Assembly: GCF_006345805.1 (NCBI RefSeq)
Contig: NC_043017.1
Span: 9,548,001-9,612,000 of the forward strand
Origin: Octopus sinensis
Taxonomy: Eukaryota
Direction: 5' to 3'
DNA: 64,000 nt
The first letter of the stretch is position 1, and each line of letters opens with the position of its first letter. Made by a program: the position numbers and the translations under genes. Positions 10,208-15,747 of the stretch are shown here, piece after piece. The notes under the pieces are model-generated. The model saw only the letters and a program-made list of their open reading frames with translations, did no database searches and was not told the DNA's origin.

Positions 10208-10424
10208 ATCGTTGGTCTCGGCCATGATAAACTGTCATTGACCAGACACAGTGTCGGTCTGCAGCTTCTTGACTGCTTGGCTGATGAGCTGAAACTACAG
10301 TGGAAAGATGACAAAGAAACCGTGGCAGGACATGTTGCTGTGAGTAAACTCGATGATGTCAGCCTTATTCTCCTGAAACCACAGATTCCAATGATGGTAA
10401 ATGGAACCAGTGTTTCAAAAGCAG
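10208..10424 (+). CDS. PTRH1: Peptidyl-tRNA hydrolase (Pth/PTRH1)-like, exon A: IVGLGHDKLSLTRHSVG...LLKPQIPMMVNGTSVSKA
   Basis: Acceptor tttcag|, donor G|gtaagg (phase 0 to 1). Motifs IVGLG, TRHSVG and LLKP..M..NG.SV are diagnostic of Pth. Confidence 0.92.
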
Positions 10425-10890
10425 GTAAGGAGATCTCTTTCGACCACAATTTCTAAAGATTCTCTCTCACTCTCTTTGTACACACACACACACACACACG
10501 TCTCTCTCTCTCTCTCTCTCTCTCTCCAGACACATACCTATTTCTTTATTACCCACAAGGGGCTAAACACAGACGGGACAAACAAGGACAGACATAGGTA
10601 TTAAGTCGATTACATCGACCCCAGTGCGTAACTGGTACTTAAATTATCGACCCCGAAAGGATGAAAGGCAAAGTCGACCTCGGCAGAATTTGAACTCACA
10701 ACGTAACGGCAGACGAAATACCGCTAAGCATTTCGCCCGGCGTGCTAACGATTCTGCCAACTCGATACATACACATCCAAACACACATGCAGACATTCTC
10801 CTTCAGACAACACCCTCCTACATCCGCCTCCACCACTTCCACCACCACCACCACTACCACTTGACCTCTCTCACTAATTGTCTCTTTCAG

Positions 10891-10990
10891 CTCGTCATTT
10901 CGATGTCCCCCCAGAGAATGTCTACCTCATCCATGATGACATTGGTCGCAGAATGGGGAAGATTGCTTTGAAGAATGGAGGCTCAGCCAA
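10891..10990 (+). CDS. PTRH1: Pth-like exon B: ARHFDVPPENVYLIHDDIGRRMGKIALKNGGSA
   Basis: tttcag| ... AA|gtaagt, phase 1 to 2. VYLIHDD and K.GGSA motifs match Pth. Confidence 0.92.
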
Positions 10991-11029
10991 GTAAGTTTAC
11001 GACTAACGGAACATTTGTTGTTGTTGTTG

Positions 11030-11400
11030 CTGTTTGTTTGTTTGTTTGTTTGTTTGTTGAGCGAACGGTCTTCGTCCCAGAGCTCGCAAGATGGGAGAAG
11101 TCCGAAACGTGGTCCTTTGCTATTCGTAAGACCCGCAGAAGAGAAAGCAGGTCAACCCCCCCGACACCGAAAGCATCGACGGATCGATGAATGCACATCC
11201 AGGCTCAGCGGTTGCGTAGGAAGTCGGGGATAAGAAACAGGAAGAAAGAGTGAGAGAAAGTTGGGGTGAAAGAGTACAACAGAGGTTGCCACCACCCCCT
11301 GCTGGAGCCTCGTGGAGCTTTAGGTGTTTTCGCTCACTAAACACACACAACGCCCGGTCTGGGAATTGAAACCGCGAGTCCACTGCCCTAACCACTGGGT
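11030..11400 (-). mobile_element. tRNA-derived SINE family C with (CAAA)n tail; copies 35527-35910(+), 57857-58250(+)
   Basis: Head gtggaggcgcaatggcccagtggttagggcagcggactc...ggtttcgattcccagacc and body gagcgaaaacacctaaagctccacgagg are shared among copies. Confidence 0.85.
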
Positions 11401-13526
11401 CATTACACCTCCTGCTGTTGTTGATCACATTTATCCAACATCTCTCTCTCTCTCTCTCTCTCTCTCTTCCTTCTCTCTTTTCCTCTCTCTTTCTCTCTCT
11501 CTCTCTCTGTCCACTCTCTTTCTATCTTTGTCTCTTCTCTCTTTCTTTTCCCTCTGTCCTCCTCTCTCTTTCACCTTCATATTCCCCCTCTACCCCTCTT
11601 TCTCTTTATCCTTCCTTCTCCTAATTCTTTCTGTATGCGGCGAGCTGGCAGAAACGTTAGCACGTCGGGCGAAATGCTTTGCGGTATTTCGTCTGCGTTA
11701 CGTTGTGAGTTCAAATTCCGCCAAGGTCGACTTTGCCTTTCATCCTTTCGGGGTCGATAAATTAAGTACCAGTTATGCACCGGGGTCGATGCAATCGACT
11801 TAATACTTATGTCTGTCTTTGTTTGTCCCCTCTATGTTTAGCCCTTTTGTGGGTAGTAAAGAAATAGGTACATTCTGTAGAGCGGTTGACACTAGGAAGG
11901 ACATCCAGCTTCAGAAACCGTGCCGAAGCAGACAGCTGGGGCTTGGTGCGGTCCTCTGACTCAGCAACGCCTGTCAAATCGTTCATCCTATACCTGCATG
12001 CCAAACAGGAGGCAAACAGCAGCAGCAGCAGCAGTGATGATGATGATGATGATGTTGATGATGATGATGATGATGATGATGATGATGATGATGATGATGA
12101 TGATGATGATGATGATGATGATGATGATATTGATGATGTTGTTGATGATGATGATGATGTATCATCAGCATCATTGTTCTAGCATCCATTTACGCATGCT
12201 TGCATGCATCAGCTAGAATTCATTGAGGCAGGTTTTCTATGGTTAGATGTCCTTCCTGTCGATGATGATGGTGGTGGTGGTGGTGGTGGTGACGATGATG
12301 ATGATGAAAAACAGCAGTATTAATTGATGATCACTGAAAACCAAAGCAACGAAGGGTTGCTTGGGCGGGGGCGGGGTATGGGGGTGTTTTTAATTATTTT
12401 TTTGGCTTTCTGTCTGTCTAAAGGTCATCAAAAGTCTGTAAGTGTGATCAGGTGCGCTAGTACTTATACCAAGATGATATATTGTCCTAACGTGCAAGAT
12501 GTGTGTGTGTGTGTGAGGGGCTAATCTTTTAATCTGATTTAATGTGATACTCTTTAAAAAGTCAGTTTATATAATCTTTTAAACTGATTCTGTTGTGTTT
12601 CTTTTCTGCGTCAATGCTGTAATTCTTTGGTTGGCATTTAACGATGTTTGATGATATCTAATGGAAGCAGATACAGCTCGGTTGTTAGGCTCTTCAACAA
12701 ACTTACTTTGCAACTGTGTAGTTTGGGGTTCAATCCCACTGTGTGGCACCTTAGACGCCTGGGCCTACCAATATATATATATATATATGTATCATCATCA
12801 TCGTTTAATGTCCGTTTTCCATGCTAGCATCAATTGGATGGTTCGACCGGGGTCTGGGAAGCCAGGAGGCTGCACCAGGCTCCAGTCTGATCTGGCAGTG
12901 TTTCTACAGCTGGATGCCCTTCCTAACGCCAACCACTCAGTGAGTGTAGTGGGTGCTTTTTACGTGCCACCGGCACAGGTGCCAGGGGAGGCTGGCAATG
13001 GTCACAATCGGTTGGTGCTTTTTATGTGCCACTGGCACGGAAGCCAGTCATGGAGACGCTGGCATCGACCACGTACGGACGTTGCTTTTTACGTGCCACC
13101 GACACGGAAGCCAGTCAAGGCAGCGCTGGCATCAGCCACGTATGGATGAATTAGTGTGTGTGTGTTTGTTTGTTCCCCCCACCTACACACCATTGCTTGA
13201 CAACCGATGTTGGTGTGTTTATGTCCCCGTAACTTAGCAGTTTGGCAAAAGCGACCAATAGAATAAGTAGCAGGCTTACAAAGAATAAGTCCTGGGTGTC
13301 AGTTTGTTTGACTAAAGGCGGTGCTCCAGCATGGCCACAGTCAGATAACTGATACAAATAAAAGAATAAAAGAACCGTATGAAATTATATCTTTAGATAT
13401 GATTTAAATGGAATCCCTAAAAACACACACCACCACCACCACCACCACCAGCATGCAGTCTGTTTGATAATTATCTTTTTGTAATTAAACTAATCTTTAT
13501 TTATTTATTTGTTATGTTTTTTGCAG

Positions 13527-13572
13527 TGGACACAGTGGTGTGAAGTCTGTGTTGGATGCATTGGACTCTGAG
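13527..13572 (+). CDS. PTRH1: Pth-like exon C: (N)GHSGVKSVLDALDSE
   Basis: tttgcag| ... GAG|gtaggt, phase 2 to 0. Corresponds to the GHNGxxS motif. Confidence 0.9.
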
Positions 13573-15546
13573 GTAGGTTGGTCACCTTTCTTTATCAATG
13601 ACTGCCCCTATCCCCTCTCTCCCAGTCTCTCTCACTCTACACACCCACGCACACATACACACACACATAATCATATATATCATGGTATCGCCCAAACTAT
13701 CCAAGGTTGCTTTATATCACTGGTCACATTGCACTTTACATTGCTTTAGTTTTTGAATGCTGCCACCCTACTAGCTGGGTGGGTTGGCAGGCTAACATCC
13801 ACCCTGATCAGAAGGCCATTCTGTCACAAGGCAACTCATTTTTAGCTGAGTGGACTGGTCTAATGACCCTCCATATTTGTTCTGGTCCAATGACCCTCCA
13901 TATTTGTTCTGGTCTAGTGACCCTCCATATTTGTTTTTCATTCGGTTTCCTTATATGTGTCTACTGTCATGTTTTTGCTCCCAGCTTTCACCCTCCATAA
14001 ATCCTAAATTTTATTTTAGAACTTATGCAAGCAATTGTCTTTGAAGACTCATATTGTCGCTGAATGCTCAAAATGAGGAGTAGACAGACAGCCAACAACT
14101 GATGAAGGGTCCTTTCTCTATGTTTACTTGTCCTGTTTTCCATTCTTTTCTCATTGTTTGTGTATCTAACTCATTTGTTTACATATTTCATGTTATTTGC
14201 ACCGTTGGTGACATCCTGTACCATATATGCTGTATATAATATATATATATATATATATATATATATATATATATATATATATATATATATATATATATAT
14301 ATATGTATATATATATATATATATATATATATAATATATATATATATATACATATATATTATTTACTATTATTTAATTGAACATGACGCATCTGTTTCCA
14401 AATATATATATATATATATATATATTATATATATATATATGTATATATATATTCACATTCTTCCAGTTTACTTGTATGAAATCCACTCAAAAGACTTTGG
14501 TACTCTCGGGCTGTAGTTGAAGACACTTGCCCAGGGTGCCCTGTGGTGGGACTGAACCTGAAAACCTGTGGTTGGGAAGCAAACTTTTTAACCACACTGC
14601 CACACCTACCTCTACAAGCCACACTTGCGCCTGTGTGTGTGTGTGTGTTATTATTAAGGCAACAAGCTGGCAGAATTGATAGCACGCTGGGGCAAAATGC
14701 TTAGCAGCATTTCAACCATCTTTATGTTCTGAGTTCAAATTCCGCTGATGTCGACTTTGCCTTTCATCCTTACAGGGTCAATAAATTAAGTACCAGTCAA
14801 GTACTAGGGTCAGTGTCATTGACTATACCCCTCTCCACAAATTCCAGGCTTGTGCCTATATCAGAAAAGATTATTATTATTAAAAGGAAATATAAAAGGA
14901 GAAAGGGGCTCTCTACCCACCTTTTGACCGGGCTCCCGTGGCTTTTATGGGTTTTTCCACGAGTAACCTTTCGAAGCGCCTCCCCCTATTGGGAGTTTTA
15001 ATTGTTACTTATTTTTCATTGTCATCCTGCTTTTGTACACGGACCTTTTTCAAACGGACAAAACCCTTTGTAACTTTCGTCCTGTGTTTTGTCCCTTTAT
15101 GTTTTAATTGATTTTTGTTAGCCCTTGTGGCCAATAAACGAACAAATTATTATTATAATTATTATTATTATTATTATTATTATTGCCGGTGGCACATAAA
15201 AGCACCATCTGTTCGTGTCCGTTGCCAACCTCGCCTGGCCCCCGTGCCGGTGGCACGTAAAAGCACCATCCGTTCGTGTCCGTTTGCCACCCTCCCCTGG
15301 CACCTGTGCAGGTGGCACGTAAAAGCACCCACTACACTCACGGAGTGGTTGGCGTTAGGAAGGGCATCCAGCTGTAGAAACACTGCCAGATCTGACTGGG
15401 CCTGATGAAGCCTTCGGGCTTCACAGACCCCAGTTGAACCGTCCAACCCATGCTAGCATGGAAAACGGACGCTAAATGATGATGATGATGATGATGATGA
15501 TTATTATTATTATTACTATTTCATTTTTTTTTTTCTTTCTTTGTAG

Positions 15547-15747
15547 AAATTGACAAGACTGAAAATTGGCATTGATCGTCCAGCTGCAAAAGACCAGATT
15601 GGAATGTACCTCCAGGAAGAATTTTCACCTGAAGAACAAGTCATACTGGATTTAGTTATGGATCTTTGCTTGACGACTTTGTGTCAGCATCTGAAAGATA
15701 AGACGGGAGTGGATATGAACGATTTGAAACCAGCCAATAAAACTTAA
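15547..15747 (+). CDS. PTRH1: Pth-like terminal exon D: KLTRLKIGIDRP...FSPEEQ...KPANKT*
   Basis: Long polypyrimidine tract + tag|, phase 0. RLxIGIxRP and F(S)xEE motifs; TAA at 15745-15747. Confidence 0.92.
   Translation, partial: KLTRLKIGIDRPAAKDQIGMYLQEEFSPEEQVILDLVMDLCLTTLCQHLKDKTGVDMNDLKPANKT

Follow-up and report, generated by a model that had tools for sequence, protein, structure and literature searches.

The window analysed here is a stretch of 64,000 nucleotides from the genome of Octopus sinensis (NC_043017.1, positions 9,548,001 to 9,612,000, forward strand). It carries coding exons 2 to 5 of PTRH1 (Pth1), a gene of the peptidyl-tRNA hydrolase (Pth) family. A query with exon 2 returned an identical stretch in an O. 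sinensis protein annotated as probable peptidyl-tRNA hydrolase (XP_029649272.1, here P0002). Residues are numbered as in Escherichia coli Pth (K-12 record), to which the octopus protein was aligned, and aligned sequences are referred to as rows. The features of the gene in the window, with the basis for each, are as follows.

10208..10424, + strand: coding exon 2 of PTRH1, residues 48-119 plus 1 nucleotide, with N10H, H20 and N68M (sequence, profile match, contigs)
10223..10225, + strand: His53 (CAT) replacing Asn10, octopod-specific (codon reading, alignment)
10247..10249, + strand: His61, the catalytic base H20, retained; Asn in P0004, P0005 and P0036 (codon reading, alignment)
10394..10396, + strand: Met110 (ATG) replacing the oxyanion residue Asn68, present in every coleoid row (codon reading, alignment)
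10891..10990, + strand: coding exon 3, with D93 retained (codon 10935), D96G, and K105 of the tRNA acceptor clamp retained (sequence, alignment, contigs)
13527..13572, + strand: coding exon 4, 46 nucleotides, with H113 retained (13531) and N114S (AGT, 13534) (sequence, contig of run X7)
15547..15747, + strand: coding exon 5 up to TAA, with R133K, V149L and L150Q in the lid loop, and the C-terminal helix (sequence, alignment, model)
15748..16760, + strand: likely 3′ untranslated region of about 1 kb, its unmapped end estimated from the length of one spliced contig

The gene has five coding exons, and their joined translation of 234 residues is identical to P0002. An earlier note on this DNA had described four clean exons. 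The canonical splice sites (AG acceptors and three GT donors) and the frame, free of stops until the terminal TAA, were correctly read, but exon 1 (141 nucleotides) lies 34.5 kb upstream of the window, at G000:C21:9513351-9513491, where it was located by a genome search with P0002. The first intron is about 44.7 kb long. The 3′ untranslated region was estimated from a contig of run X1, 2074 nucleotides in length, of which 1264 lie beyond exon 3.

Exon 2 alone matches the PF01195 profile with 31.4 bits against a cut-off of 27 (E 2.3e-4), PF01195 is also found on P0002, and Pth structures are matched by sequence at E 6e-26. An AlphaFold model with a mean predicted local distance difference test score of 79 (core 82-96) superposes on Pth structures with Z up to 27.5 and a root mean square deviation of 1.4-1.7 Å over 176-177 residues (Foldseek E 3e-20). 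Since Pth matches score Z 25-27.5 against 12.9 for the next family, the fold is preserved, as had been supposed. In a tree of 76 rows coleoid Pth1 is sister to chiton and bivalve rows at 97/78 (not starred), amid animal and molluscan PTRH1. The bivalve rows themselves are not one clade, Sinanodonta standing with the chiton and Mercenaria and Mytilus elsewhere, owing to poor resolution or hidden molluscan paralogy.

Three genome searches, with PF01195, P0002 and the intact chiton protein P0009, returned this locus only; they were exon-wise, scored the top candidates, and were run on an assembly that may be incomplete. Two matches on C11 (E 2.6 and 4.2) were rejected as noise: each contains a stop, and the one inspected is non-coding. 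By sequence and tree position, this gene is the Octopus orthologue of PTRH1 and the single detected copy.

Active-site residues of octopus Pth1

Bacteria cannot live without Pth, whose active site is nearly invariant. Relative to the E. coli enzyme, the octopus protein has His53 for N10, Met110 for N68, Gly138 for D96 and Ser156 for N114, and it retains H20 (H61), M67, D93 (D135), H113 and K105. The alignment thus bears out the residue changes first read from the window, the loss of three asparagines and D96 with H20, D93 and H113 kept, and adds two lid-loop changes that had been overlooked, V149L and L150Q. A register shift at N68, with the asparagine two residues on (MMVNG) taking its place, was ruled out, since intact relatives have both asparagines in an ungapped block (PMNVNG).

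Conservation was counted over 267 non-coleoid homologues from animals, fungi and bacteria, some of them redundant, with three fragments of fewer than 120 residues excluded and gapped rows left uncounted at each site. The asparagine triad is as highly conserved as had been claimed, at 255/255 for N10, 266/267 for N68 and 240/265 for N114. H20 is present in 256 of 259 rows, D93 in 265 of 267, V149 in 248 of 253 and L150 in 247 of 253; position 96 is D or E in 223 of 267. Both mammalian rows, neither of which is human PTRH1, retain N10, H20, N68, D93, H113 and N114.

The roles of these residues are known from work on E. coli Pth. Each of N10A, N68A, N114A and D93A is reported to reduce kcat by a factor of about 100 and to leave Km nearly unchanged (PMC5238795), the Km values of the three asparagine mutants being 3.9-12.5 µM against 6.0 (PMC5238795; PMC3488237). 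H20 mutants are described as dead, yet H20N binds substrate, and N10 is said to discriminate N-blocked from free aminoacyl-tRNA (PMC5238795). A second account (PMC3488237) assigns the oxyanion hole to N68 and N114 and acceptor-stem binding to K103, K105 and R133, places K142 close to the CCA end, and describes D96 as a tRNA-ribose contact whose change to Ala has little catalytic effect. In the octopus protein H20 and D93 are present, the oxyanion residues N68 and N114 (or a basic residue at 114) are absent, and the peptide-reading N10 is absent. In the tRNA clamp K105 and K142 are kept, R133 is Lys, D96 is lost, and Ala stands at 103, where several intact animal rows have it too. The changes at N10 and N68 are the strong part of the evidence for the predicted loss of catalysis.

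Contigs from four runs of four studies were compared over 10150-11030; none of the runs is recorded as RNA, expression rests on spliced joints, and contig depth was unused. Exon 2 is joined to exon 3 at GT..AG in a contig from each of the four runs, and the gene is therefore intact and spliced, which supports the earlier note. The codons for H10, H20 and M68 show no alternative letter in any contig, although contigs drop rare variants, and the only exonic differences, at 10354 and 10931 in two runs, are both synonymous. The Ser codon of exon 4 is seen in one contig (run X7), which has the first 30 nucleotides of exon 4 directly after exon 3; in the contigs exon 4 is represented by this one loose contig end. 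Two O. bimaculoides-type gene models omit this exon: the RefSeq model P0033 (154 residues) terminates exactly as a splice from exon 3 to exon 5 would, and P0001 likewise has no counterpart of 13527-13572. Either an assembly gap or a genuine exon-skipping, frameshifted isoform accounts for them.

Rescue by A-to-I editing was ruled out: a change of A to G cannot make an Asn codon from CAT, ATG or AGT, and the contigs show no other letter. By the codon table, the ATG of M68 is two base changes from any Asn codon. The substitutions also extend beyond this assembly, as all three asparagine losses recur in O. vulgaris and in two Argonauta proteins. N10H, N68M and N114S are real.

Distribution and constraint in coleoids

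The coleoid alignment holds 13 full-length rows, in five clusters at 90% identity. N68M, V149L, the loss of L150 (to Q, K or N) and the loss of D96 (to G or A) are found in 13/13, and N10H and N114S are restricted to the four octopod rows. H20N occurs in P0004, P0005 and P0036 (the last found on 15 contigs), two decapodiform-like clusters that group with the Sepia pharaonis cluster, in which N68 is the sole loss among five catalytic residues. The concerted loss of the asparagine triad proposed in the earlier note is not borne out: N68 alone is gone in all coleoids, N10 and N114 in octopods only, and the loss is, as the alignment reads, stepwise. Its proposal of a pseudo-enzyme is strengthened by H20N in related coleoids, the loss of activity itself being a prediction.

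In the tree the coleoids form one clade (100/100) with a stem of 0.60 changes per site and a short crown, octopus and decapodiforms being about 0.3 apart. The H20N rows have terminal branches of at most 0.04 and are not a single clade (97/84); thus either the change occurred twice or was reversed, or this part of the tree is in error. Catalysis would have been abandoned on the coleoid stem, with N68M and the lid-loop changes; later, with the scaffold still under constraint, the further catalytic residues lost would have differed between octopods and some decapodiforms.

Outside coleoids, one or more of N10, H20, N68 and D93 is missing from just 3 of the 267 rows: two from Haliotis and one from Heptranchias perlo, on separate long branches. 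The abalone proteins P0093 and P0189 (Haliotis asinina and H. rubra; 158/168 identical) have H20Y, D93A and N114S, have lost K105, R133 and K142, have a core net charge of -12, and end in a long low-complexity tail of R, D, N and W. The shark PTRH1-like protein P0128, a single sequence, has H20C, N68K and N114T and a basic core (net +11). By their sequences, the abalone case is an independent and more complete loss of the active site, and the shark case likewise an independent degeneration of the same site.

The core of the octopus protein is identical to that of O. vulgaris at 170/170 positions, to Argonauta at 154/170, and to decapodiforms at 124-128/170 (73-75%), which supports the claim of a preserved, constrained gene; the leader is identical between octopus and decapodiforms at only 10-11/39. 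Catalytically intact pairs, whose splits are of similar age to that of octopus and squid, gave core identities of 121/169 and 108/169 (teleosts) and 108/169 (snake and bird). The octopus-squid split has been put at 270 million years (PMC11736069). In a background set of 39 rows, 37 sites are at least 90% conserved, and changes at these were compared among coleoids, sauropsids and teleosts (group sizes 8, 8 and 4). Coleoids have changed 8 of the 37 (N10, H20, N68, 109, N114, 138, V149 and L150), sauropsids 1 and teleosts 4, none of the control changes being catalytic. At the remaining 132 sites coleoids are invariant at 79 and the controls at 52 and 56 (Fisher p 0.001 and 0.007, both overstated given non-independent sites and unequal group sizes). 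The damage is thus concentrated in the catalytic and peptide-binding cleft, and the scaffold has held.

The rate of change in cephalopods was uncontrolled by any other gene in this comparison. A search for decapodiform DNA for codon comparison gave 111 pattern matches, 0 of them confirmed, and constraint is therefore demonstrated at the protein level only. Judged from these identities, the core, having passed through a long stem branch, is as strongly conserved as that of the vertebrate controls with intact catalytic sites, and the best reading of the gene appears to be a pseudo-hydrolase under purifying selection at the level of the protein.

Possible functions

It is probable that octopus Pth1 acts without catalysis, as a tRNA binder or as a protein scaffold, the two taken jointly. 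As to the first, the protein is predicted to have no peptidyl-tRNA hydrolase activity and to serve as a non-cutting binder of tRNA acceptor ends in the mitochondrial matrix; we favour this tentatively, and put it at somewhat short of an even chance. With N68 and N114 gone the tetrahedral intermediate would have no oxyanion support, with N10 gone the peptide would go unread, and turnover would fall by several orders of magnitude. K105, K133 and K142, retained in 10/10 complete coleoid rows displayed, would still clamp the acceptor stem and the CCA end, and peptidyl- or aminoacyl-tRNA would be held uncleaved, as by the H20N mutant of E. coli Pth. The leader encoded by exon 1 is basic, amphipathic and free of acidic residues, and would direct mitochondrial import. 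It has 6 K/R and 0 D/E in 35 residues and a hydrophobic moment of 0.73; a helix at 8-17 is predicted with low confidence. Yeast Pth1 is reported to be a soluble matrix protein (10.1101/2024.11.20.624519).

GGQ factors, a PTH2-family enzyme and a VLRF1 protein elsewhere in the genome would supply the hydrolysis. Large contigs hold PTH2-family genes (C30 and C23), GGQ-bearing RF-1-family genes (C5, C20 and C25) and a VLRF1 gene (C10), which we provisionally assign, by motif, as PTRH2, PTRHD1, MTRF1L, MTRFR, ICT1 and ANKZF1. A second, divergent set of PTH2, RF-1 and VLRF1 genes lies on small contigs (C7757, C8697, C8615, C9733, C12601, C9323, C9587, C8694, C9254, C9061 and C12470). These are compact or have very short introns, two have three in-frame TGA each, and the set is likely foreign DNA, from a parasite or microbe, in the assembly.

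Several observations weigh against a non-cutting tRNA binder. Octopods and the Sepia cluster still have H20, D93 and H113, and the E. coli alanine mutants may be imperfect guides to His, Met and Ser substitutions in a eukaryotic scaffold. There is no gain of basic surface, core net charge being -3 to +2 in four coleoids and -2 to +6 in five intact animal controls. D96 is lost, and position 103, like that of most animal rows, is non-basic. Most decapodiform rows have Cys for R138, and K142 falls within a loop that is aligned with less certainty. Residues 87-136 show the strongest coleoid-specific conservation, a pattern that a protein partner would explain as well as RNA would. Among the homologue matches none is named as a protein of Nautilus or Vampyroteuthis, so that the first change can be placed only on the coleoid stem or earlier in cephalopods. 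Of 265 homologues, 22 have a K, R or H at position 114. We equate L138 of Thermus Pth, which we take to be its lid leucine, with L150. Thermus Pth is reported to be active with Arg at 114 and to keep 55% activity as L138A (PMC11994314), so that N114 and L150 alone are weak evidence. A molluscan protein, P0013 of Mytilus galloprovincialis, has N114K and R133W in an otherwise intact site and recalls the basic 114 of Thermus.

A non-catalytic scaffold, in which the fold is kept for a protein partner such as the mitoribosome or an assembly factor and tRNA binding is incidental, is unlikely. In its favour, within residues 87-136 coleoids are invariant at 41/50 sites, sauropsids at 23/50 and teleosts at 19/50, though this segment was chosen after seeing the data, its sites are non-independent and the groups number 8, 8 and 4. 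Twelve residues invariant in coleoids are seldom found in 53 other rows, and maize CRS2, which binds CAF1/CAF2, likewise has V149L and no D96. The tRNA clamp residues, however, are kept in coleoids and lost in the abalone copy.

It is unlikely that octopus Pth1 is a hydrolase of altered specificity, in which H20 and D93 would activate water against a different ester, for example a small acyl adduct or aminoacyl-tRNA that is free or mis-charged. H20, D93 and H113 are retained in octopods and the Sepia cluster, and N10, reported to discriminate the N-blocked substrate (PMC5238795), is changed. M68 in 13/13 full coleoid rows, with H10 and S114 common to Octopus and Argonauta, suggests selection on the new residues. 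Set against this, three related rows have H20N without a rate increase, and octopods have lost both oxyanion donors without gaining a basic residue in their place.

Weak residual Pth activity is a still less likely account. Single asparagine mutants of E. coli Pth are reported to retain about 1% of kcat (PMC5238795), deletion of yeast pth1 is reported to be viable (PMC9718836), and the Sepia cluster lacks N68 only. Octopods, however, lack all three asparagines and some decapodiform-like rows lack both H20 and N68, and a low need for activity fails to explain a scaffold constrained like that of vertebrates with intact sites. A decaying gene, young pseudogene or assembly error is very improbable: the dispensability of the gene in yeast (PMC9718836), the two models without exon 4 and the degenerate abalone and shark copies point that way, but the core identities across coleoids over 270 million years (PMC11736069) and the spliced contigs in 4/4 runs, with two synonymous exonic differences only, largely exclude it.

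Elsewhere around the gene, there is a tandem array some 1.5 kb upstream of the start codon (L034 about 750-3900, G000:C21:9508750-9511900); its repeat unit measures roughly 135 bases, and it has long repetitive open frames on the minus strand. In intron 2, 10540-10765 is a very high-copy interspersed repeat, by eye like a short interspersed nuclear element, which matched thousands of contigs per run, and similar elements recur across the window. The rest of the window, surveyed as 84 stop-to-stop frames of at least 110 codons and a complexity-filtered list, appears repeat-like by eye.

Significance and comparison with known systems

The clade-wide loss of the active site in a single-copy, conserved gene is real and apparently undescribed; the function proposed for it is a prediction. 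No paper on such a loss in coleoid Pth1 was found in a search of main texts that covered few subscription journals. The database name probable peptidyl-tRNA hydrolase is likely wrong for all coleoids. It is possible, though on balance doubtful, that the sole Pth1 of coleoids became, with no duplication of the gene, a selected factor without catalysis whose new role lies in mitochondrial translation or tRNA handling. If so, the independent losses in abalone and shark would bring to light a so far hidden function of animal PTRH1 that does not depend on catalysis, and a coleoid-specific change in the translation machinery would be added. The role of animal PTRH1 in vivo is unsettled. Reviews give mammalian Ptrh1 a part in cytosolic ribosome quality control, in which it is said to free nascent chains (PMC6514570, PMC13234167, PMC13628044); yeast Pth1 is a dispensable matrix protein. 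The losses form a natural allele series (N68 in the Sepia cluster, three asparagines in octopods, H20 and N68 in others, and H20, D93, N114 and the tRNA clamp in abalone) that separates catalysis from any other selected function.

The octopus protein shares with PTRH1, yeast Pth1 and bacterial Pth the residues H20, D93, H113 and K105 and an N-terminal leader, and with E. coli Pth (2PTH) the same fold (Z 25.9, root mean square deviation 2.0 Å over 178 residues). It differs by N10H, N68M, N114S, D96G, V149L and L150Q, and from this sequence catalytic competence would not be expected. Dom34/Pelota and MRPS35 are described as translation-rescue hydrolase folds kept after a catalytic residue was lost (PMC6514570). 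They differ in having unrelated folds and in their birth by duplication, whereas octopus Pth1 has no detected active sister copy.

Maize CRS2, a chloroplast splicing factor put forward as a precedent, has the Pth fold (structural match Z 27.5) and shares V149L and the loss of D96 with coleoids. In contrast to the octopus protein it keeps N10, H20, N68, D93, H113 and N114; at 27% identity it is no closer than bacterial Pth, and it belongs to a different lineage, the octopus protein nesting in animal PTRH1 in a tree built without CRS2. CRS2 is a duplicate beside an active Pth, whereas octopus Pth1 is the only copy found. No group II introns are known from cephalopod mitochondria. CRS2 is reported to have lost PTH activity (PMC9275481) and is said to lack RNA-binding ability, working through CAF1/CAF2 on group II introns (PMC10054620). 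As a Pth fold reported to lack activity CRS2 is a loose precedent, and as a mechanistic parallel it is weak, since it keeps all three asparagines and is said to act through CAF1/CAF2.

For human PTRH1 there is one report, from cancer cell lines, of binding to an mRNA, in the PD-L1 3′ untranslated region (PMC10337161). The mammalian rows compared here keep all catalytic residues, and that work has no cephalopod link; the likeness lies in its suggestion that an animal PTRH1 may bind RNA apart from catalysis.

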